A stretch of 64,000 nucleotides of DNA from a virus (Duplodnaviria; Caudoviricetes): the IMG/VR virus record IMGVR_UViG_3300032227_000893, positions 3,482 to 67,481 of that record, one strand, 5' to 3'. Both the position numbers and the translations under genes were made by a program. The number at the start of each line of letters is the position of its first letter. Position 1 is the first letter of the stretch. The notes under the pieces were generated by a model. It was not told where the DNA came from. It was given only the letters and a program-made list of their open reading frames with translations, and did no database searches. Below, in pieces: positions 3,243 to 28,743 of this stretch.

Positions 3243-3986
3243 ATGACAGTAGCGACGATTAAAAACTCTCCGTACATTTCGATGATTTCCAAGAAGCGGC
3301 CTTGGCAAGCCACTGAAGTTGGAAAGGGAGTTTTGGTGGATGGAAGTGAAGATACAATCTTCCGTGCGCTAGCCATGCGCCACCTGGAGCTGCCTGTGGT
3401 CGAACTGTTGGAACAGGGCCTGGCCAAGGACCTGCCAGCCACTCCTGGCGTGATGGAAGCGCTCCGCTCCAATCAAGTGGATGAGGCACGGCATGATGAG
3501 GCTTTGAACTATGTGGCCAAAGCGCATGGCGTCAATGACAAGGCTGAAAAGGAAGTGCAAAGCATCTTGAAGGCATGGATGGACCATCCTGCCCACCCCA
3601 TACTCAAGGCAGCAGTGCTAGAGCGTAGTATTTTCTTCGTAGTGCTACCCTTTTTCCGTTTCAATGGGGATGTGGGCATGCGCACGGTTTCTCAGGACAT
3701 CTCCAAGGATGAACAAGTTCACGTAGGGGTGAATTCGTTGGTTTCCAAGGAGCTTGGAGAGGACTCAAGCCAGAGTATTAACAAGCTGCGTCGTGCTACG
3801 GCCTTATGGTTGTTCGATGCTCTTGGCGCCAGTGATAACAAGTGGTTGGACAAAGATTTTTGGCTTCGCCAGTCTGACAACTTGTTCGAGCGCGGCAAAG
3901 CTGAAGAGCTTGTCGAAAGCCGCCGGAGTCGTCAAATTGCATTCTTTGAAACGGCCAACTACAACCTTCCCTCTTACGGAAGCTAG
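3243..3986 (+). CDS. nrdB: ferritin-like RNR beta subunit
   Basis: Directly after alpha; LELPV, DEARH, LERSIFF, DEQVH carboxylate/His ligands; C-terminal Tyr (LPSY). Confidence 0.85.
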   Translation: MTVATIKNSPYISMISKKRPWQATEVGKGVLVDGSEDTIFRALAMRHLELPVVELLEQGLAKDLPATPGVMEALRSNQVDEARHDEALNYVAKAHGVNDKAEKEVQSILKAWMDHPAHPILKAAVLERSIFFVVLPFFRFNGDVGMRTVSQDISKDEQVHVGVNSLVSKELGEDSSQSINKLRRATALWLFDALGASDNKWLDKDFWLRQSDNLFERGKAEELVESRRSRQIAFFETANYNLPSYGS

Positions 3987-8424: not shown

Positions 8425-10323
8425 ATGGCTGAGGAAACTGTTGATTTAGGGCATGCCACCGAAGCCGGACTGCGGAATGACGGACTCGCCAATGCGCTGA
8501 CTGGCATGGGAAGCGGCAGGGATAAGAGCCAATACACCTACACCAAGCCCATTACTTTCCTTATGCAGGAGGAGCTGGAAGGGCTCTATGGGGAATGGCT
8601 GCCGCGCCGCATCATCGACATCTATGCAGAGCAAGCCACCCGCAAGGGATTCAAGGTGCTGTTTGGCGGCGAGGGCGCCAAGGCCGAGGAAGTGGTGGGC
8701 GTGGAGCAAGTGATCGAGGATCTATATATTCTCGAAAGCTTGATGCTGGCATCAAAGAATTCTCGCCTCTATGGTGGTGCCGTAATCCTGCTCTACATTA
8801 ACGACGGTCGCTCTGCTGATCAGCCAGTCGACAAAAAGAATATTGCCGAAGTTGAGGGGCTGGAAGTATTAGATCGGTATCAAATTGCCCCGGTAATTAC
8901 TGAAGAAAATATCTACGATTACGCAAAGGCAACGCACTATCAAATTATTTCCGGCGATTTGATTAATCAGCCCAATCTCACCTACATCCACAAGGATAGG
9001 ATTTTACGTTTTGATGGTGACTGGCTTCCCTATCGTATCAGGCAAAGGAACTATGGGTGGGGACTGAGCAACTTGCAAGTCGTTTATGACAGCTTCCGTC
9101 ATTATTGGACTGGCTTGAATTCTGCTGCCACTTTGCTGACTGAATTTGACATTTTTGTTCACAAGATTCGTGGGCTAGCTTCCATGCTTGCTGCTGGCAA
9201 GGAAGGGCAGGTCAGGGACAGGCTTGTGCTAAACGACATGAGCAAGAGCGTTTATCGTGGCTATGCCATTGACGCAGAAAAGGAAGAGCTTAACTTTGAA
9301 AGCCGTAACCTTGGAGGTATTGGCGAAATTCTTGAGAAGCTTCGCGTAGATATTATTGGTGCATCTAAGATTCCCCACACCTTGTTGTTTGGCGAGAGCC
9401 CTGGTGGCCTTGGCTCCACTGGCCGCAGTGAGGAGCGTGACTTTGCCAAGACACTTGCTGACTATCAAACGGCAACGTTTAAACGTCCGTTGAAACAACT
9501 GATGGAATACATCCTGCTCAGCAAGACTGGCCCCACCAATGGCCGCCTTCCAGAATCATGGCGCATCCATTTCAACGACTTGTACGAGTTGAATGAGCGT
9601 GAAAAGGCTGACGTAAGGGCTCGTGTGGCAGCCGTAGATGGCCGCTACATCCAACTAGGTGTCCTCCATCCAAAAGAAGTGGCAGACGCTCGCTATGGCG
9701 GTAGCGAGTGGAACATGGAACTCACTCTCGACCCATCGCTTCCTCGCGAGCTGCCAGTGCAGGGGCGGAGTGGAGGGCAGAGTCAGGGGCAGAGTGGCTT
9801 TGCCGTACCCCCTGGTGGCCGCGATCCTCTTGATCAAACATCTGGCAGCTTGCCAATGGATGGCACTCGCAATGCCACTGACAGCACTGGCCCCTACATT
9901 TACAATTACAACACGGTTCACGAACGTAGCACGTTTCTGGAGGAAGAATCAGAAACAAACCGTGAAGAAGAGGATTCCTTCTCTGACAAAGATCTTCATC
10001 AGCAAGCAGTGGCTGCTGCGAAGAGTAGGTTTGCCGTGTATCCATCTGCCTATGCCGGAGCTTACATCTCTCAAAAATACAAGGATTTGTATAAGCGCAA
10101 GTACGGTTCGATGAAGGGTGCATTCAAGGGGAAAAAGAAGGCAATGACAATGCCCAAAACTGATGCCGCAGAGGCCATGAAAGTCTCTGGGCTACTCTTG
10201 AATGATTACGACGAAGCTGCCCTGGTCAATCAATCAGACATTGACGCTGCTCTGAATGAATGGAAGACAGAAGCACCAGAGCGTTTCAAGGACATCCTGG
10301 AGGCAACTAATGTCGAGCCTTGA
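8425..10323 (+). CDS. portal protein (DUF1073/HI1409-type) with long C-terminal extension
   Basis: SRLYGGAVIL, IHKDRILRF, IPHTLLFGESPGGL, ADYQ..FKRPL; first gene of the head operon. Confidence 0.88.
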   Translation: MAEETVDLGHATEAGLRNDGLANALTGMGSGRDKSQYTYTKPITFLMQEELEGLYGEWLPRRIIDIYAEQATRKGFKVLFGGEGAKAEEVVGVEQVIEDLYILESLMLASKNSRLYGGAVILLYINDGRSADQPVDKKNIAEVEGLEVLDRYQIAPVITEENIYDYAKATHYQIISGDLINQPNLTYIHKDRILRFDGDWLPYRIRQRNYGWGLSNLQVVYDSFRHYWTGLNSAATLLTEFDIFVHKIRGLASMLAAGKEGQVRDRLVLNDMSKSVYRGYAIDAEKEELNFESRNLGGIGEILEKLRVDIIGASKIPHTLLFGESPGGLGSTGRSEERDFAKTLADYQTATFKRPLKQLMEYILLSKTGPTNGRLPESWRIHFNDLYELNEREKADVRARVAAVDGRYIQLGVLHPKEVADARYGGSEWNMELTLDPSLPRELPVQGRSGGQSQGQSGFAVPPGGRDPLDQTSGSLPMDGTRNATDSTGPYIYNYNTVHERSTFLEEESETNREEEDSFSDKDLHQQAVAAAKSRFAVYPSAYAGAYISQKYKDLYKRKYGSMKGAFKGKKKAMTMPKTDAAEAMKVSGLLLNDYDEAALVNQSDIDAALNEWKTEAPERFKDILEATNVEP

Positions 10324-14876: not shown

Positions 14877-15158
14877 ATGACAATGGAAGATCGTGGAGAT
14901 GCGGCAATGCCTAAAACCAAAAAGGCAAAGCAAGCGAAAATCGCCAAGGTAATGCGCGAATTTAAGGCTGGCACTCTCAAGGGCAGCGACCAAAAAGCCA
15001 TTACCAATCGCAAGCAGGCAATTGCCATCGCTCTTTCTGAGGCTGGCATGTCGATGCAAGGCAAGAGTGACGAATACTGGGACAGCTACGTGGTGACAAT
15101 TATGGGCGGAGAGGAGGAAGAGGAGGAAATGGAGGATCCCGAAGAGGGAAAGTCTTAA
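14877..15158 (+). CDS. small head-module protein (DUF6496-like) with acidic tail; short product of a frameshift gene
   Basis: KIAKVMREFKAGTLK...RKQAIAIALSEAG motif. Confidence 0.75.
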   Translation: MTMEDRGDAAMPKTKKAKQAKIAKVMREFKAGTLKGSDQKAITNRKQAIAIALSEAGMSMQGKSDEYWDSYVVTIMGGEEEEEEMEDPEEGKS

Positions 15159-15183
15159 GGGGAGACGCTGAGTCGTTCTCCCC
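15146..15183 (+). other. programmed -1 frameshift signal (G GGA AAG, 6-nt spacer, GC-rich hairpin)
   Basis: Heptamer 15146-15152 in frame; hairpin GGGGAGACG-CTGAGT-CGTTCTCCCC 15159-15183. Confidence 0.75.
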
Positions 15184-15505
15184 TCCGTCGCCTGTACGGT
15201 CCGCAGCACGTCGCGGGCTTGAATTGCGCAAGAAGTATCGGAAGGGTGGGCTGACCACCCAGGAGGCCGGTAAGCAGGGCATTGGTAGCGGGGTGGCACG
15301 GGCGACGAGCCTGGGCAGCGGAGAATCCGTGAGTTTTGAAACAATCAAGCGTATGGCGGCATTCTTTTCTCGTCACGAGAAGAACAAAAGTGGTGGTGAA
15401 AATGATGCTGGTTACATTGCTTGGCAACTATGGGGAGGAGATGCGGGTAGGGCGTGGGCAAATCGTGTGATTAAGATGGTTGAAAATCGCCAATCAAGAC
15501 AGTGA
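15152..15505 (+). CDS. C-terminal domain reached by -1 frameshift (VLRGDAESFSPP...ETIKRM...IAWQLWGGDAG)
   Basis: Protein-like sequence begins about 24 codons before the first TTG (15224); no ATG/GTG/TTG in that part of the frame. Confidence 0.7.
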   Translation, partial: VLRGDAESFSPPSPVRSAARRGLELRKKYRKGGLTTQEAGKQGIGSGVARATSLGSGESVSFETIKRMAAFFSRHEKNKSGGENDAGYIAWQLWGGDAGRAWANRVIKMVENRQSRQ

Positions 15506-15810
15506 GCGAATACGTCCGTGTGATCGAAGCTGAGGAGGATGGGATTGGCGTGATGAAGGCGCTAGCCATCTTGTCATCCAATGAACATCGCAATACCAGT
15601 GAGTGGCACTTGGTTGAAAAGCAATGCTTCAAAAATGGGCGGCTAGACGAAACGCATATTTATTGCGAGAGTCATTACGACAAGCCTGATGAGTATTTTG
15701 AAAAGACAAAATTCCTCACCTTTGAGGTGGAGGCAATGGCAAAAGCGTACATCATGGAGGGCATTGAAGAAGCAATTCGCTCCACTCAAGAGGAAGGCGA
15801 CGAAGACTAA
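15502..15810 (+). CDS. hypothetical acidic protein
   Basis: GTGA overlap with the preceding ORF. Confidence 0.65.
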   Translation: MSEYVRVIEAEEDGIGVMKALAILSSNEHRNTSEWHLVEKQCFKNGRLDETHIYCESHYDKPDEYFEKTKFLTFEVEAMAKAYIMEGIEEAIRSTQEEGDED

Positions 15811-16151: not shown

Positions 16152-17345
16152 ATGAGCACCACATGCTTTCGCTACGATGTAGCGCCAATCGAGAAATACG
16201 AAACCACACCTGAGGGTTACCTGAGGTGCTGGTCTACTATTGCGCGGACAGGTGTACAAAATTACACCAATTCCGATGGTTCGATTCGGCGCGAATATCG
16301 TCCCGTAAGCGAAGTGGCGTCTCCCGAAAGCTTGGCCTCGTTTGCGGGCAAAGCAATCACTCTTGAACATCCTCCCGTATTGCTCGATAGCGACAACACT
16401 AAAGACTATCAAATTGGCTTTAGTGGCACGGAAGTGGTTTATGACAACGGATTTGTCCGTGCAGTCATGACCATTACAGATGCAAAAGCAATTGAGCAAA
16501 TTATGCGTGGTGATGCAAAAGAGGTAAGCGCTGGCTATAGGGTTTCCTATGATCCGACGCCTGGTGTTACCGAAGGTGGTGAAGATTACGATGGCATCCA
16601 AACGGGTATCAGCGGAAATCACATTGCTGTGGTGCGCAGGGGCCGGGCGGGCCCGCAAGTGAAGCTACATCTGGATCGTCTGGATGCCGCTGATCCATCT
16701 CTAATGAATACTGAGGAACCATCTATGACTGCTAAGGTCGTGTTTGATGGCGCCGAGTTCGAGGTGACCGAGAGCGTAGCTCTGGCGATCACCAAAGAAC
16801 GTGAAGACGCCAAGATGTCCTACGAGGACATGAAGAAAAAATACGATGGCATGATGTCCGAAGCTTCTTCCCTCAAGGAAGAAATGGACGCCATGAAGAA
16901 GGAAATGAGCGGTAAGTGCGACTCTGCTGAAGGTCGTGCTGATGCACTCGCCGAAGAAGTGGAAGTCCTGAAAACGGACCTTTCCGCTGCTCAGCAAGTG
17001 AACGTCGACAGCCTCGTCGAAGAGCGCATTGCTCTGATTGACAAGGCTCGCACGTCGCTTGATTCCGCTTTTGATTTTGCTGGCAAGTCTGCTCGTGAAA
17101 TCATGGAAGCTTCCATCAAAACTGTTCGTGGCGACGAATGTGATCTGTCGGATCGTTCCGATGATTACGTGACTGCCATGTTCGACACCCTGGCTGTAAC
17201 CAGCGCTCGCGCTGATTCTGCCAACACTGATGAGCTGCGTAAAGCTGTTGCTTCTATCGCTGCTCCTCTTTCTGCACCTGCGTCCTACATGGACAAGTTG
17301 CAGAATGCTTGGAAATCCCCTCTCTCCGTCTCTAAGGAGCGCTGA
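16152..17345 (+). CDS. DUF2213 prohead protease/scaffold
   Basis: TPEGYL..ARTG, ITLEHP, EVSAGY, NHIAVVRRGRAG; C-terminal coiled-coil scaffold. Confidence 0.88.
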   Translation: MSTTCFRYDVAPIEKYETTPEGYLRCWSTIARTGVQNYTNSDGSIRREYRPVSEVASPESLASFAGKAITLEHPPVLLDSDNTKDYQIGFSGTEVVYDNGFVRAVMTITDAKAIEQIMRGDAKEVSAGYRVSYDPTPGVTEGGEDYDGIQTGISGNHIAVVRRGRAGPQVKLHLDRLDAADPSLMNTEEPSMTAKVVFDGAEFEVTESVALAITKEREDAKMSYEDMKKKYDGMMSEASSLKEEMDAMKKEMSGKCDSAEGRADALAEEVEVLKTDLSAAQQVNVDSLVEERIALIDKARTSLDSAFDFAGKSAREIMEASIKTVRGDECDLSDRSDDYVTAMFDTLAVTSARADSANTDELRKAVASIAAPLSAPASYMDKLQNAWKSPLSVSKER

Positions 17346-21525: not shown

Positions 21526-21754
21526 CTATCTATGGAGTGACGACGGCTCGGTCCATGCCATAAACTGCCTGAAGAGCAACAACGACTTAGAGGTGGGCAT
21601 CCTTTGCCTTATGTCCATTCTCGAAACCACCATTAGAATTGCTAACGACAAGCATTCATTCGTCGTGGAAATTCCAAAAGAATTTCAATCTCAAAACGAA
21701 CGAGTGAAGGCATTTAACGCCACTTTAAACATTTTAAGCCATGAGCAAGTATAG
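21515..21754 (+). CDS. hypothetical protein
   Basis: Overlaps both neighbours in the operon. Confidence 0.6.
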   Translation: MEIDYLWSDDGSVHAINCLKSNNDLEVGILCLMSILETTIRIANDKHSFVVEIPKEFQSQNERVKAFNATLNILSHEQV

Positions 21755-22280
21755 CTTTCTAGTCGCCAGCAAGGAAATCCAATATTTCGACCTCACCCCG
21801 ACCGTGCGGATGAAGAAGTTGGGTGGCTGGCTTGTCGCCGAATCTATTGAGCAGGAAGAGATTTCCAAGCTTCAAAGTCAATCCACTATTCGTGCTGTTC
21901 AACTGGCAAAGCGCATTGCGGCTGCCAAGGGTGTTTCCCTTGATGAAGCATTTGCTCTGTTGCAGGGCGGCGGTGTTGGCTCCGAAATGGACCTGCTGAG
22001 TGACTTCACGGAAGAAACTCTCAGCATGATTGGTAGCGGGGGCAGTGTGGAGGGCAACAATGCACGACTGGTCACTGCATTTATCCGCTGTCGCGGCGAA
22101 GGCTTGATCGACGATGTATGGACAGCAATGCCCGACTGGTCGATGGAAGACACGACTGGCTTCACCAGGGAGGTTATCAGCAAGGCTCTTGACTTCATTG
22201 GAAGCGAGCAAGAGGTGGAGGCAAAGGCAGCCGCAAAAAAAACACCGAAGAAGACGACTGCTGCCACACCGAACGAATAG
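21741..22280 (+). CDS. tail assembly chaperone (gpG analogue)
   Basis: Upstream of TMP; A AAA AAA slippery site at 22235-22241. Confidence 0.75.
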   Translation: MSKYSFLVASKEIQYFDLTPTVRMKKLGGWLVAESIEQEEISKLQSQSTIRAVQLAKRIAAAKGVSLDEAFALLQGGGVGSEMDLLSDFTEETLSMIGSGGSVEGNNARLVTAFIRCRGEGLIDDVWTAMPDWSMEDTTGFTREVISKALDFIGSEQEVEAKAAAKKTPKKTTAATPNE

Positions 22281-22702
22281 AAAAGCAAGCCAAGGCAGTG
22301 CTTGCGTCCCTTACTAAATGGGACGACATCTATCATCGCTTATGCGCCTCCGACCTCAATGATGGGCGATGGAACGCTCAGCATTTTGGCATGCAGAAAG
22401 TTGACGATGTAAAAAAAGCACTGCAATGGCTGGAAAATCACGACCTGCAGAAATACAACATCAGTAGTATCTCTACCGCGAAGCTGGCCACTTTAGTTCT
22501 TGGCGCTTTAGGGGGAAAGAGTGTGAAGCCAAACGTGAATGACTATCTTCCATTCGACACTCGCCGAGTCAGGAAAGATCGCGGTGTTTCAGCGGAAAGC
22601 CTTGCTGTGCTGCGGCAATTGATGAAAACCAGAAGGATGAATGGACGAGTAATAGCCCTGTTGGCGGATGAATTAAAGATGGCTTCACAGCGTGAAGAAT
22701 GA
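22241..22702 (+). CDS. tail assembly chaperone gpT-like extension via -1 frameshift (track ORF 22298-22702)
   Basis: -1 frame open from the A8 run through GTG 22298 to the stop at 22702. Confidence 0.7.
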   Translation, partial: NTEEDDCCHTERIEKQAKAVLASLTKWDDIYHRLCASDLNDGRWNAQHFGMQKVDDVKKALQWLENHDLQKYNISSISTAKLATLVLGALGGKSVKPNVNDYLPFDTRRVRKDRGVSAESLAVLRQLMKTRRMNGRVIALLADELKMASQREE

Positions 22703-22740: not shown

Positions 22741-25700
22741 ATGGCAGTCGGAGCTGGAAGTCCAGAGCTTAAGCTAAGCGTTGGTTTTGACCTTAACTAT
22801 TTCAAGGGTCAACTTACGGCTCTCGGAGCGGCTGCGTCTTCATATTATCTGCCAATCAATATCAAGTTTGATCGTCGTGGCATTCAAGACGAAGTTACAA
22901 AATTAGGGAAAAATATTAGCGGCAGACAATACAATTTAAAAGTTGAAGTTAAATCCCTAGAAACTGCCATTAAGCAGGCCAGAGAACTTCAAAAAATTCT
23001 AGGACAAAGCAGGGGACAAACTGCTCGCGCCACTGCGTTGCAAGGGATAACGGGTAAAGATAAATCTGGCAAGGTTATCCTAAAGGCAGACGACATTAGA
23101 AAAGTTTATTCAGCCGCAATGAAGGCTGGCATTGAAGGGCTTTCTGGCAACATTAAAGCAAGCCGACCAGTCATTGAAAAAGAATTAAAAAGCGCTTTTG
23201 GCGGTGCGTCAGATAATGCGCTGAAAGGATTGATCAATGGCCTGGCAAGTGGCGAGGGCGACCTTAAAAAAGTTGCAGGCAATCTTGGCAATGCAATTAT
23301 TGAGGAATTAAATAGATCACTAGAAATTCGCTCTCCATCAAAGAAAACGCAACGAGTGGGGGAACAAAGTATTGATGGTCTGGTCAAAGGCTTTGTCACT
23401 CGTTCTGTGCGCATGGAGCGATTTCTTGCAAAGACAATTAGCAATTTTGCAATTGGCGCTATCTACGAGGGACTGTCCACCCTTGGCAATCTTGCTCCCG
23501 CTTTCGCCCCCCTAGAAAAACAACTCCAATCACAATTTACTAGAAGCTTTCAGAAAGCAATTAGCGCAGGTCTTGAAGCTTCCAAGATCCCAGGATTCAA
23601 GGGAGGATTGCTTGGTCTATTAGGTGGTGGCACAACTGGAGCATTGGTTGGTGGCGCAAAGGGACTAGGCGGAGCTGTCTCTGGCGGTCTCAGTCAACTG
23701 GGAGCGGGCGGCATGCGTGGCGTCCTGTCACAAATGGGACGATTGGGTCATGGCGACACGTCTGCGTGGACATCATTTATTCAAGATGCGATGGACCAAG
23801 CATTGCATCAGGCTTTCAGCCCTAGCATTCTTGGCGCTGTAATTGGTGCTGCCGCCGTTGGTGGAGTAGCAGGTTCTACTGGATTTGTTAAAGGTGCATT
23901 TAACTCCTTGACAAATCAAGTTATTGAGAAAATTGTCAATACGCTTCTTTCCGCAATTTCGGGAGATCTTGTCAATGATGCCGTTCCAGTATTAAGAGCA
24001 TTTGCAAAAACATTTGTTCAATCTTTGACCACGGATCTTGCGCGGCATTTGCCGCTTAATATTTCATTTCCTCCGATGCTGCCGGCTTTGCCTCCGGCGT
24101 ACAGAGGGATCAATCCTGCTGCTGGTCCGGCTGGATTGCTTTCGCCTGGAATCCAAGCCGTAGGCGCATTGCCCCCGGGGCCCCCTCCTACAGGGCTTCT
24201 GCCTCCGGCGTACAGGGGAATCTATCCTGCTGGACCACGATCTCCATTAGGGCTGCTCCCACCTGCCTACAGAGGCTTACCTTCTGGCGCTATGCCAAGG
24301 GGGCTCTTGGGTGCATCTGCGGCGCCATTTGGTCTGCTGCCAAGCGTTACTAAAAAATCGTCTATTGCATCTGGCGTTGAATCTCTATTTGCCGCAGGCG
24401 GTCCAGCTTTCCCGGACGAACCCGCTGGCAAGCTTGCGCTTACGTCTAAAGCATTAAAAGCAAGGGTTGATTTAATACTGGCTGAATATTTTGCGGCGGC
24501 TGGAAAGACAGTTGAAAATGCTTTTGACCCAAGAGCATTTAAAGCACAACTCAATACATTTGCCTATCTTGTTCAAGCTCTTCGTGACGCAGAGTTACGG
24601 ACAAAAGGATTGCTAGGTTCTTTTGGTCGCGAGCGTACTTACACGGGAAGACCTGTTGCCGGAGAGGGCATTAACTTACCAGCAGTTTCCACGCTCGAGC
24701 AACGATTACTGCCACCGGCAAAACCAACTGACTTCACTGGAACGCCCTTCTTCAGAGCCCCCGATAACGCATCAAGCAGAACGCGAATTCGCAGACCATT
24801 GACAACAGGGCAGGGAGTGCCCAGTGGTCCGATGGGTGGGGGCGCGGAAGCAGATGCGATTGTCAGGGCGGCGCAGAATACTCTGAAACTTAACCTGGCT
24901 ACAAATATTGCCAAAAAAAGTTTTGAAGGACTTACCGCCAGTCAGTTACCGTTGATTGGTGGAATTAGATCGCTTGGTGGCGAATTTGCCAATGCCACAA
25001 AACAAGTATTACTGTACGGCACTGCTTACAGAGCGCTTGGTTTTATCACGTCTCTTCCCGGTCAAATTTTAAATGCCGCTAAAAGCCAGCAACAATATAC
25101 AAACGGGCTAAAAGTTGCCACACAAGAAACTGGTACTTTCGCGAAAGAATTGCTCTTCGTTGATAATGTTCAACGGGCATTCGGCTTGAACCTGGAAACA
25201 ACTCGTACTGGCTTTACAAGGCTTTACGCCTCAATGGCGCCCACTGGATTTGACTCTGGATCCATTGAAAAACTCTTCACGGGTATCAGTGCAGCCACGG
25301 CATCACTGCAACTAACGCCAGACAAGGCGGAACGAGTGATTTATGCCTTTGGTCAAATGGCCAGCAAAGGCCAAATCATGAGCGAAGAACTTAAGGGGCA
25401 GTTGGGTGATGTACTGCCTGGCGCTTTGGCCATCTTCTCAAAGGCCGCTGGAATGTCCGTCAAGGAATTCAGCAAGGCGATGGAAGATGGTGAATTTGTT
25501 GGCAGTCGTTTTCGAGAAGTATTTGCCAAGGTAAGCGATGAGTTGATGAATCGCTTTGGCACGGGAGCACAGGCCGCAGGCAAATCGCTCCAAGGCCTGT
25601 TAAATACAGTTGGCGGAGATTTCCAAAGAACGCTTGAATCATTCGCCCCATTGGCAGATACTGTAGCGCAAGCAATTCTTGTGCCACTCGGAGGAGCCTT

Positions 25701-28700
25701 GCGTCAGCTTTCAACAAGTGCTCAGATTGCAATGGGTGAAATAGATCGCGTGCGTGCGCAATACAAAACGGCACTGGGAGATGTGCGTGATTTACGGGCC
25801 GGAGGAGCCAGTGCCGTTCAAATCAAAGCGGCAGAACAGAACGTTGCTGCATTAGCGGCTCGCTATCGTTCGTTGAATCAAGCGCTAGAAGATCCTGCTG
25901 TCGCAAAACAAGTTAAAGACATTCAGCTTTTTGTACAAGAATTGACAAAGGCGGGAACGTTTGTAATGAATGTTGCCAGGGCCATTGGCGGCATACTCGC
26001 TCCTGCTATTAATTTCCTGGGAACTAACTTAACCGCCACAATTGCCACGATTACATCTTTCTACATTGGTTTTCAAACGGCTCGCCTAGCGGCTTCGGCA
26101 TTGATGGGAGTCCTGTTGCTCTATAGGGGGCTGTCAGCCTTGATGGGCCTTAGCACTGTGGCATCTCAGGCAAATGCGTTGGCAGGTGCTTTTAATATTC
26201 TGGGTGTGAGCGCAACTGGTGCTCAGGTTAAGCTGATAGGCTTGCGTGTTGCATTGACAGCTCTTGTCGCCACGACAGTAGTGGGAGCAGTTGTGGCTGG
26301 CATTGTTGCAATTGCAGGTGCCTTTGCGACAATGGGCAACAGAGCGAGGGACGCGGCCCAGGGATCGAAAGAGGCAGCAAAGGCCGCTATGGATGCAGCG
26401 TCAACTGGCAATGTAGCCGGAGCCGCCATGAACGTGCAAACTGTTCTGGCGGAGTCGCGCAAAAATGAGACAGCTCGCAAAACGCTAGAAAGCATCCAGG
26501 CCAGGGCAACAAAGCAGCAAAAGGGTGGCGTTGTCGGAATGAGAATCACTCCAGAAGAATCGGCGGCGTTGCAAGCATCCGCTCTGACGGCTGGAATGAT
26601 TACTGCTGGCGTATCGAGAGGCGGATTCAGGGAAATTCGGGCGTTGTCAAGTAAGGAGCAACTGGCAAGAATCAAGGAATTTGGCAGCGTAGCTGGTCAA
26701 GCCGCAATTGACCTAAAAGAAGCCAAGGCAGCCCTAGTCCAGGCCCAAAAAGTGTCCAAATTGACTGGAATGAACCAGCCCAGTCCATCTACTACGGCCA
26801 TTGATGATGCCAAGGATAAAACAAAAGCAAAGAGCCTGGAAGGCTTTTACAAGCTTGAAGACGACCTCGCAAAAGCAATAACAGAAGGAGAAATTGATCG
26901 CGCCAATATGTTGTTTGAGCATAAGAAAAATCTGCTTAATACTTATTACGACATCCAAGATGCACGTGCCAACAGCTTCCAGAAGGAAACCATTAAGTTT
27001 CAGCGAGAGATTACCAATATTGAAATGGACAGGCAAAAAAGTGCTTTAGATGCTCAGAATTCTGTAAAGAAGATACAAGGTAGCGTTGCGGGCGGCGCCA
27101 CGGGATTGCTTCAAGGTAGCACTGGCGTTTCAAGCGGTGCCCACTTTGACGTGAGGAGGCAAGATGGTAAATACATTAGCCCCGAAGAAGCTCGTGCATT
27201 GTTTGATCCGGCCACAGCAAAACAATTATCACTCACAAGCAAATACGGTCCTCGCACTGCACCAGTGCCGGGAGCAAGCACCTTCCACCGAGGCGTTGAT
27301 CTTGCGGGCCCAGCCAACACGCCATTGAACCTAGCGGCTGGATACAGCATGATGGGGGCAGGAGAGAAAGGCGGCCTTGGTTTCACGGCATCGGTTCGCG
27401 GGCCGCAGGGAACGATGTATGACGTGGGTCATCTACAACGGCCCGGAGCCGGAGCGGGGACCATCCGTCCGGTCAAGGGCAACGAAAGCCGTGATATCAA
27501 GGCGGCGGCAAAAACCGAAATCGAGCTGCAAAAAGAAAGCCTGGCGCTTAAGTACGCCGACGAATTGGCAATTCAAAGGCAGACTGCCGCCATGGCAAAT
27601 TATTTAGCAGCAATGCTGCCCATAGCGGAACAACAGCTTCAAAATCAAATCCTGGAAAAACGCACAGCCCTGCAACTGGCTGGTACTCCCCAAGCGTTAA
27701 TAGACAGAGAGATGGAGCTTTACGAAGCTGAAACAAAAAATACCGCAGCCATTGAACTACACCGGGACAAGATTGCAGAGTTATCCAAACAGAAAGGCGC
27801 GGATGGCAAGCTTACGGAAAACGCAGTCAGGCTCATGGCGCTTGAGCAAAAAGCTCTTGACGAGCTAATTGCAAAATTCCCTAAGTACAAGGCACTGTTG
27901 CAGGAGGCTGGACAATTAAAAATGCAGGCTGGTTTTGCTCGTGACATGGGGGCTCTCAAGGATCAGCTTCAGCTTGCAGCAATTATTGATCCACGAATGG
28001 AACAGAAGCAGAAGTACATACAAGAGGGTCTTACTCCAGGGCAAGCTGATGAAAAAGTTAGGCTCGAAGAGCAACTGGCCGCTGTTACCAGATTGCGAGA
28101 TGGCTACAGAGGGCTTGCTGATTCCATTGGCGGCTCCTTTGGCCAAGCTTTCAAGGGTGTCATTTCCGGCTCAATGACGGCACGGGAAGCGCTGGCTGGT
28201 TTCTTCCAAAGCGTGGCAGATTCATTCCTCGACATGGTTGCCCAAATGATTGCGGCATGGATGAGGACCATGCTCCTCCAAGGCTTCCAGTCATTGTTTG
28301 GTTCCGTCCTTGGCGGCATGGGAGGAGGATTTAAGTTTCCAGGGACAACTGGATTGGGAACCAACTTCAGCTCTGCCATTGGAAACAGCACTGGCATTCC
28401 GTTCCAATTTGCCAATGGTGGCATCGCCCCTGGCGGATTCCGTGCTTTTGCTTCTGGAGGCGTTGTCACAGGCCCCACGCTGGGCCTTGTAGGCGAAGGG
28501 CGTTACAACGAGGCAGTGATTCCCCTGCCAGACGGCAAGAGCGTTCCAGTGAACCTCAGGGGCGGTAGTAATGGCAATAACGGTCCCGTTAACGTCGTAG
28601 TGAATGTTGACGCAAAGGGCAGTACAGTGGAGGGAGATGAAGACAAGGCTAATGAATTGGGACGTGCTATTAGCGCCGCTGTCCAGTCAGAATTGATCAA

Positions 28701-28743
28701 GCAACAAAGGCCCGGTGGCATGCTTTCTGGCCCTCGACGCTAA
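22741..28743 (+). CDS. tape measure protein with tape_meas domain, Pro-rich insert and M23-like peptidase domain
   Basis: 2000 aa; QMASKGQIMSEELKGQLGDVLPG; HRGVD; C-terminal FASGGVVTGPTLGLVGEGRYNEAVIPL. Confidence 0.93.
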   Translation: MAVGAGSPELKLSVGFDLNYFKGQLTALGAAASSYYLPINIKFDRRGIQDEVTKLGKNISGRQYNLKVEVKSLETAIKQARELQKILGQSRGQTARATALQGITGKDKSGKVILKADDIRKVYSAAMKAGIEGLSGNIKASRPVIEKELKSAFGGASDNALKGLINGLASGEGDLKKVAGNLGNAIIEELNRSLEIRSPSKKTQRVGEQSIDGLVKGFVTRSVRMERFLAKTISNFAIGAIYEGLSTLGNLAPAFAPLEKQLQSQFTRSFQKAISAGLEASKIPGFKGGLLGLLGGGTTGALVGGAKGLGGAVSGGLSQLGAGGMRGVLSQMGRLGHGDTSAWTSFIQDAMDQALHQAFSPSILGAVIGAAAVGGVAGSTGFVKGAFNSLTNQVIEKIVNTLLSAISGDLVNDAVPVLRAFAKTFVQSLTTDLARHLPLNISFPPMLPALPPAYRGINPAAGPAGLLSPGIQAVGALPPGPPPTGLLPPAYRGIYPAGPRSPLGLLPPAYRGLPSGAMPRGLLGASAAPFGLLPSVTKKSSIASGVESLFAAGGPAFPDEPAGKLALTSKALKARVDLILAEYFAAAGKTVENAFDPRAFKAQLNTFAYLVQALRDAELRTKGLLGSFGRERTYTGRPVAGEGINLPAVSTLEQRLLPPAKPTDFTGTPFFRAPDNASSRTRIRRPLTTGQGVPSGPMGGGAEADAIVRAAQNTLKLNLATNIAKKSFEGLTASQLPLIGGIRSLGGEFANATKQVLLYGTAYRALGFITSLPGQILNAAKSQQQYTNGLKVATQETGTFAKELLFVDNVQRAFGLNLETTRTGFTRLYASMAPTGFDSGSIEKLFTGISAATASLQLTPDKAERVIYAFGQMASKGQIMSEELKGQLGDVLPGALAIFSKAAGMSVKEFSKAMEDGEFVGSRFREVFAKVSDELMNRFGTGAQAAGKSLQGLLNTVGGDFQRTLESFAPLADTVAQAILVPLGGALRQLSTSAQIAMGEIDRVRAQYKTALGDVRDLRAGGASAVQIKAAEQNVAALAARYRSLNQALEDPAVAKQVKDIQLFVQELTKAGTFVMNVARAIGGILAPAINFLGTNLTATIATITSFYIGFQTARLAASALMGVLLLYRGLSALMGLSTVASQANALAGAFNILGVSATGAQVKLIGLRVALTALVATTVVGAVVAGIVAIAGAFATMGNRARDAAQGSKEAAKAAMDAASTGNVAGAAMNVQTVLAESRKNETARKTLESIQARATKQQKGGVVGMRITPEESAALQASALTAGMITAGVSRGGFREIRALSSKEQLARIKEFGSVAGQAAIDLKEAKAALVQAQKVSKLTGMNQPSPSTTAIDDAKDKTKAKSLEGFYKLEDDLAKAITEGEIDRANMLFEHKKNLLNTYYDIQDARANSFQKETIKFQREITNIEMDRQKSALDAQNSVKKIQGSVAGGATGLLQGSTGVSSGAHFDVRRQDGKYISPEEARALFDPATAKQLSLTSKYGPRTAPVPGASTFHRGVDLAGPANTPLNLAAGYSMMGAGEKGGLGFTASVRGPQGTMYDVGHLQRPGAGAGTIRPVKGNESRDIKAAAKTEIELQKESLALKYADELAIQRQTAAMANYLAAMLPIAEQQLQNQILEKRTALQLAGTPQALIDREMELYEAETKNTAAIELHRDKIAELSKQKGADGKLTENAVRLMALEQKALDELIAKFPKYKALLQEAGQLKMQAGFARDMGALKDQLQLAAIIDPRMEQKQKYIQEGLTPGQADEKVRLEEQLAAVTRLRDGYRGLADSIGGSFGQAFKGVISGSMTAREALAGFFQSVADSFLDMVAQMIAAWMRTMLLQGFQSLFGSVLGGMGGGFKFPGTTGLGTNFSSAIGNSTGIPFQFANGGIAPGGFRAFASGGVVTGPTLGLVGEGRYNEAVIPLPDGKSVPVNLRGGSNGNNGPVNVVVNVDAKGSTVEGDEDKANELGRAISAAVQSELIKQQRPGGMLSGPRR

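Follow-up and report, generated by a model that had tools for sequence, protein, structure and literature searches.

Programmed −1 ribosomal frameshifting very probably operates at positions 15146–15152 of the window, by which we mean the whole 64,000-nt stretch of viral DNA analysed here, where it would attach an unnamed six-helix domain, here called X, to a short DUF6496 protein encoded in the head module. The anatomy of the signal, its conservation, the existence of in-frame fusions and the absence of a start codon proper to the second frame can all be read directly from the sequences compared; the slip itself, its efficiency and the function of the product are inferred. The window corresponds to positions 3482–67481 of a 67.5-kb IMG/VR virus record with an estimated completeness of 94%, and the closest cultured relative of the virus is the Synechococcus siphovirus S-CBS4. 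The head module starts with the portal gene (8425–10323, + strand; Pfam Phage_portal_3, E 1.5e-57), which is followed by glycosyltransferase and methyltransferase genes, a 413-aa gene of no known function, the DUF6496/−1 pair, a 102-aa gene, the gene for a DUF2213/phrog_530 head maturation protease-scaffold (16152–17345, + strand; Pfam and PHROG profile matches) and the capsid genes. The locus is thus sited between the portal and the DUF2213 protease. The 102-aa gene (15502–15810, + strand) comes directly after the −1 frame and belongs to the same operon, since its GTG start overlaps the stop of that frame (GTGA). Its product had no family match in Pfam, PHROG or NCBIfam, nor did it show any similarity to the C-terminal half of the X proteins (~260 aa) from Vibrio and Limnohabitans phages, of which it had been considered a possible counterpart.

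The upstream reading frame, ORF1 (14877–15158, + strand), encodes a protein of 93 aa that matches Pfam PF20106 (DUF6496) above threshold (E 2.1e-8; 34.8 bits for a gathering cut-off of 24). It consists of a basic N-terminal DUF6496 core and an acidic, E-rich tail with the end ...EEGKS, and its last codons are GAG GGA AAG TCT TAA. These contain the slippery heptamer G GGA AAG (15146–15152, + strand), which has the form X XXY YYZ and is in phase with the frame opened at 14877. A 6-nt spacer, TCT TAA (15153–15158, + strand), holds the zero-frame stop (15156–15158) and separates the heptamer from the hairpin GGGGAGACG-CTGAGT-CGTTCTCCCC (15159–15183, + strand), made up of 7 bp, a 1-nt bulge and 2 bp. 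The −1 frame, ORF2 (15152–15505, + strand; 117 codons, stop TGA at 15503–15505), reads VLRGDAESFSPPSPVRSAARRGLELRKK...WGGDAG... from 15152, stays open through 15505 and encodes a linker (VLRGDAES) followed by the X domain. The first ATG, GTG or TTG in this frame is the TTG at 15224, which lies inside a conserved motif. Joining 14877–15152 to 15152–15505, with base 15152 read twice, produces a transframe protein of 209 aa (92 + 117), given a start at ATG 14877.

The preliminary description of this locus, made from the window alone, had reported the same heptamer, coordinates and −1 frame and the same lack of a start before 15224, all of which are borne out by the sequence and its translation. 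With ATG 14877 as the start, the sizes announced there for the two products, 93 and about 209 aa, are right. As for the hairpin, described as one of 9 bp, its location and the 6-nt spacer hold, but nine continuous pairs are obtained only if the bulge between the seven outer and the two inner pairs is ignored. Three in-frame ATGs in the region 14877–14910 (14877, 14883 and 14907) are possible starts of ORF1; homologues such as the database protein P0003 begin at the counterpart of ATG 14883 (MEDR...), a choice that corresponds to products of 91 and 207 aa. The N-terminal DRGDA of ORF1 resembles the RGDA that follows the junction and is not kept in relatives starting with MTKKEKQ....

Taken alone, the window sequence is not convincing, since a 61-nt segment of it folds no better than its shuffles (z = −0.45), and the significance of the signal comes from the comparison with relatives. 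The element GGAGG at 15131–15135 (+ strand), 10 nt upstream of the heptamer and within a tract of Glu codons, may act as a Shine–Dalgarno-like stimulator. Of 75 relatives, only 17 have a GGAGG at a distance of 8–14 nt before the heptamer, and in view of this count and of the Glu-codon tract we did not retain the element as a component of the signal. The hairpin was likewise considered as an intrinsic terminator and this was rejected, as no T-run follows it and a terminator scan made no call.

The standard bacterial mechanism of −1 frameshifting is tandem tRNA slippage on X XXA AAG with a downstream stimulator, as in dnaX, in the IS911/IS3 elements and in lambda G-GT. Applied to the window, ribosomes on the DUF6496 gene would meet G GGA AAG with the hairpin at 15159–15183 placed at the mRNA entrance, 6 nt downstream. 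The majority would read TCT, stop at TAA and release the 93-aa protein; in a minority, both tRNAs would slip back by one base (GGA to GGG and AAG to AAA), and these ribosomes would go on in the −1 frame to 15505, yielding a 209-aa protein laid out as DUF6496, acidic linker, RGDAES motif and X domain. A fixed ratio of the short and long products is an expectation from this mechanism. A phased heptamer, a hairpin at 5–9 nt, an open −1 frame without a start and conservation of the signal together give the site the appearance of a canonical −1 frameshift site.

From the ~535 loci that exist in IMG/VR, two scans retrieved 160, and 94 of these are distinct. The counts that follow are approximate, since two artefacts of automatic anchoring had to be resolved by eye, namely the odd heptamer 'CATGGAA' in L029 and one seemingly 'in-frame' locus containing TAG. 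In about 76 of the 94 distinct loci, the DUF6496 ORF and ORF2 are offset by −1, and all of these carry X XXA AAG, in the form of A AAA AAG (about 54 loci), G GGA AAG (14) or C CCA AAG (7). The −1 loci use only the three heptamers (C_CCA_AAG, G_GGA_AAG and A_AAA_AAG) that Sharma et al. (2014, PMC4066793) report to have the highest efficiency in E. coli. The distance from heptamer to hairpin is exactly 6 nt in every −1 locus. This includes L022, L023 and L063, in which a zero-frame TAG directly after the heptamer is followed by 3 nt (TAG GCA, TAG ATA and TAG ACA), so that the 6-nt spacing is retained. In S-CBS4, gp018 ends AGA AAA AAG GGC TAA, with the heptamer A AAA AAG at the same place, and 6 nt after it comes the hairpin GGGGCGA...TCGCCCC; protein similarity between the window and S-CBS4 in the −1 frame starts at the junction, with 77% identity from residue 2.

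Other relatives encode the same two parts without any offset. In about 13 distinct loci (e.g. L008), DUF6496 and X are encoded in one frame, the heptamer is absent and the hairpin has decayed. Six database proteins of 206–218 aa (P0003–P0008) are natural in-frame DUF6496–X fusions, again without heptamer; the PF20106 flag is present on P0007 and P0008, and phmmer matches every one of the six to the DUF6496 ORF of the window. What these natural fusions show extends only to the viability of the fusion protein. The frameshift claimed in the preliminary description is thus upheld by the heptamer class, spacer and hairpin of ~76 distinct relatives, by the in-frame homologues and by the lack of a usable ORF2 start, and the contrary outcome that it had named, homologues lacking the signal, did not occur. 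In two contigs, L054 (= L164, near 2246) and L135 (near 1500), a single base is missing at or next to the A-run (TGCG-AAAAAAG and GGAAAAA-G, respectively), which places ORF2 at +1. On the tree, L054 nests among near-identical canonical loci (L135 is not on the tree), and in both cases the missing base is likely a homopolymer assembly error; a genuine variant that would call for a shift of +1 or −2 is less probable.

The hairpin is conserved to a degree that its controls do not reach. In 42 distinct −1 sequences, 98% of the cells of the outer 7-bp stem are paired, a value attained by none of 500 shuffles, and slid controls gave 66–84%. Four of the seven pairs are invariant, two vary from G–C to G–U and one covaries. 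Among 66 distinct sequences, this last pair is C–G in 30, A–U in 25, a wobble in 5 and a mismatch in 6, and A is never found with G (Fisher p about 5e-12, phylogeny ignored). The coupling is hard to explain by protein constraint, because the 5′ base occupies the third, synonymous position of a Gly codon, and the 3′ base to which it is linked comes first in a Ser or Ala codon. The mean ΔG of the hairpin is −12.2 to −13.5 kcal/mol in the −1 loci as compared with −4.8 to −5.0 in the in-frame loci. The in-frame relatives have the same peptide, RGDAESFSPP, but their codons break the stem (79% paired). Conservation of the hairpin could be in part a matter of coding constraint, given that the hairpin is short, that four of the seven outer pairs do not vary and that RGDAESFSPP is kept in the in-frame forms too.

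In three loci (L022, L023 and L076), the place at which the frames meet is narrowly confined. The −1-frame stop ends immediately 5′ of the first base of the heptamer, and the zero-frame stop lies directly 3′ of the heptamer in L022 and L023 and one codon later in L076; because the overlap is limited to the heptamer region, the two frames can be joined only there. This bears on the idea that ORF1 and ORF2 are simply two genes, with ORF2 translated by re-initiation past the ORF1 stop or through a non-canonical start codon, and with an incidental heptamer and hairpin. The S-CBS4 record presents the pair in this way, as gp018 and gp019 with gp019 annotated from GTG, and separately encoded X, with an ATG ~9–12 codons before the motif F-x-P-P...RRGLELR, does occur in distant Vibrio and Limnohabitans phages and in Brevundimonas, Deinococcus, Saccharibacteria and other genomes. 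For the −1 loci, however, we hold two separate genes to be very improbable. The GTG of S-CBS4 is GTA in the window. From the upstream stop to the heptamer, the ORF2 frame contains no ATG, GTG or TTG in 41 of 60 loci; the other 19 have some TTG or GTG, which would favour separate genes, but these are at non-conserved positions and there is no ATG among them. Moreover, no start codon occurs within 24 codons after the junction in 38 of the 60 loci, and since these codons already include the F-x-P-P...RRGLELR motif, initiation further downstream would cut it, while the conserved peptide begins at the junction itself. The missing start is meaningful because the distant stand-alone X genes have a proper ATG at this place. 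That all ~76 loci have a heptamer from the best three, with constant spacing, and that in-frame DUF6496–X fusions exist, likewise speaks against two genes.

A second way to unite the frames would be transcriptional slippage, with RNA polymerase adding one A at the A-run. One inserted A would lead to an identical protein, ~54 of the 76 loci have runs of 6 to 8 A, the longer of which could support such slippage, and the two contigs mentioned above (L054/L164 and L135) differ by one base at or beside such a run. Yet there are no more than three A at the G GGA AAG site of the window or at the C CCA AAG sites, too few for polymerase slippage; the three types of site are interchangeable, a hairpin at 6 nt has the geometry of ribosomal slippage, and the X XXY YYZ phase is retained in every case. 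Slippage of the polymerase is accordingly judged a shade less probable even than separate genes. The least credible explanation, to which we give hardly any weight, is that the locus is broken, whether because an in-frame DUF6496–X gene has become a pseudogene or because such a gene was misassembled. In-frame relatives do exist, and indels do arise as errors in contigs assembled from metagenomes (e.g. P0049 and L054/L135). The comparison nevertheless effectively refutes this explanation, since the −1 offset recurs at an identical position in ~76 distinct contigs drawn from many samples, as well as in a cultured isolate, since three different slippery heptamers are used and since ORF2 is under clear purifying selection.

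A tree built from the 318 nt downstream of the signal requires at least 14 changes among the A AAA AAG, G GGA AAG, C CCA AAG and in-frame states, and in-frame forms arose 2 to 5 times, although recombination could inflate such counts. The slippery site has thus been repeatedly swapped for another site of top efficiency and not simply inherited. As far as sequences can tell, this repeated replacement argues for selection on slipperiness, and the exchange with in-frame forms shows the fusion protein to be the functional long product. The in-frame lineages also suggest that the short product, or the exact ratio of the two, may be dispensable.

The X domain itself carries no name. Residues 10–112 of the ORF2 protein (P0002) match positions 164–266 of the 740 of phrog_2859 (E 1.2e-19), that is, one domain of a long profile whose function is unassigned; X had no Pfam match at E ≤ 1 and no NCBIfam model. 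In the ESM Atlas, only unnamed viral clusters were returned for X, and the nearest named family, DUF6321, was set aside as too weak (score 0.86). An AlphaFold2 model of P0003, the closest in-frame homologue (94-row alignment, mean pLDDT 80.7), consists in its DUF6496 part of a helix, a beta-hairpin, a second helix and a long acidic helix. A disordered linker (residues 78–92), with the conserved motif R-G-D-A/S at its end, leads to a six-helix domain (residues 103–206) modelled for the most part with pLDDT above 90. A Foldseek search of the PDB found nothing at E ≤ 0.001, and no solved structure resembling either part of the model emerged. The top Foldseek match, chain 9k2v_A of the cyanophage A4 pre-ejectosome, was discarded (E = 1.1, TM 0.17), as were the generic helical bundles that made up the results of a wide VIA-align search (best Z 4.6).

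Among proteins from BFVD and the protein database (P0009–P0122), X may stand at the N-terminus, in the interior or at the C-terminus. It is located after portals and ahead of S78/XkdF prohead proteases, in one case in the order ChaB-X-S78, and it is also combined with 2H/LigT (Acb1-like), InPase, ParB, HAD, Dps, ART and SNF2 domains. X is present in haloarchaeal tailed viruses as well. In the loci L089–L103, from Brevundimonas, Pseudoxanthomonas, Deinococcus, Paracoccus, Saccharibacteria and Doudnabacteria, X has its own start and no DUF6496 partner, and in most of them it is a stand-alone protein of about 107–114 aa; these genes presumably lie in prophages.

Iyer et al. (2017, PMC5512222) have argued that an enzyme joined to a portal or MuF domain is packaged in the virion and injected. 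The fusion partners of X include portals, prohead proteases and enzymes predicted to be injected, and the gene in the window lies between the portal and the protease and capsid genes; on these grounds we infer a role in the head interior. X is probably a head-interior or portal-proximal assembly module, and the long form would be a minor head-interior or portal-proximal protein in which X serves for assembly or anchoring. The RGDA motif, which the preliminary description had taken for a cleavage site, is retained by relatives of either arrangement, −1 or in-frame; distant X proteins lack it. A putative protease site would fit the position of the motif and its retention in the in-frame relatives, where it is free of RNA constraint. 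One may go further and imagine, though we regard this as rather doubtful, a scheme in which frameshifting fuses, the head packages and a protease cleaves. X would be a procapsid- or portal-targeting module borne by portals, prohead proteases and injected enzymes; the frameshift would set the number of DUF6496 molecules that are tethered to X and carried into the head; and the DUF2213 protease would cut R-G-D-A/S in the disordered linker, freeing both parts. Such a scheme would amount to the logic of Gag-Pol applied to phage head cargo and, if it were true, the repeated switching between frameshifted and in-frame forms would tune the stoichiometry of the cargo.

The mechanism proposed here is a textbook one, and the closest parallels to the signal are the cassettes of dnaX and IS911/IS3 (A AAA AAG with a stem-loop or pseudoknot), which share with it X XXA AAG, slippage of the A-site Lys-tRNA and an RNA structure 5–9 nt further on. 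In IS elements, the transframe product is a two-domain fusion, as it would be here. In contrast with these cassettes, the upstream Shine–Dalgarno-like stimulator is not conserved in the present family (17/75), the zero-frame stop falls inside the spacer and the proteins are unrelated; in addition, the shifted product of dnaX is the shorter one, whereas here it is the longer. The lambda G/GT tail assembly chaperone has the identical heptamer to that of the window, G GGA AAG, and is similarly a gene of a phage late operon with a short major product and a C-terminally extended minor one. Unlike G/GT, however, the present gene belongs to the head module, between portal and protease, and not to the region between tail tube and tape measure; the proteins are unrelated, and the hairpin is a conserved feature here.

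The same phage probably has a second −1 frameshift site, in the ordinary tail-chaperone arrangement, which provides an internal control. A slip site of the tail-chaperone type, A AAA AAA (22235–22241), is in phase with the ORF 21741–22280, and from it the −1 frame is open through the ORF called at 22298–22702, before the gene for a 2000-aa tape measure (22741–28743). It was fair to describe the DUF6496 locus, as had been done at the outset, as recoding outside the usual tail-chaperone and capsid cases. Capsid frameshifts, such as those of T7 10A/10B and of the major head protein of Lactobacillus phage A2 (cited in PMC10885494), resemble it in that a −1 shift in a head gene adds a C-terminal extension to a fraction of the product. 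They differ in that the shifted gene here is not that of the major capsid protein and in that the added part is a complete, independently folding and widely mobile domain that also exists as a stand-alone protein. The architectures in which X occurs (portal-X, X-2H, X-InPase and ChaB-X-S78) are those of the phage 'polyvalent proteins' (PMC5512222), with the difference that X is not a Pfam-named domain and that, in this clade, its link with DUF6496 is made mostly by recoding and not by fusion.

In the literature searched, nothing of relevance was found on DUF6496, on frameshifting in S-CBS4 or on ribosomal frameshifting in cyanophages, and a paper on the Pakpunavirus 'Adele' was rejected as a precedent, as it covers the tail chaperone only. 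Within that literature the DUF6496–X gene pair is new, and the S-CBS4 record gives it as two genes. The comparison thus adds a well-supported recoding site to the DUF6496 family and the X domain, in common freshwater and estuarine cyanobacterial siphoviruses. It also sets right how gp018/gp019 of S-CBS4 are annotated, along with hundreds of metagenomic contigs in which ORF2 has been called from arbitrary internal starts. The repeated swapping of the three best bacterial heptamers, and the several exchanges between frameshifting and plain fusion, constitute a natural experiment, which makes the system useful for studying the evolution of frameshift efficiency and product ratio. X, for its part, is a frequent but unnamed head-associated module that deserves a family definition and a structure.

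Some individual loci depart from the common layout. In L016 (1817–2725) and L018, the DUF6496 core is separated from the C CCA AAG site by ~120 extra residues. In L049 (1358–3001), a radical-SAM/SPASM frame runs without a stop into the DUF6496 ORF over 548 aa; this may reflect either a genuine fusion or an upstream frame that simply happens to be open. Finally, three contigs assigned to MAGs with the labels Gammaproteobacteria, Methylacidiphilales and Nanopelagicaceae (L085, L086 and L087) have a locus of the cyanophage type with intact frameshift signals and 82–85% identity; mis-binning of viral contigs is the probable explanation.
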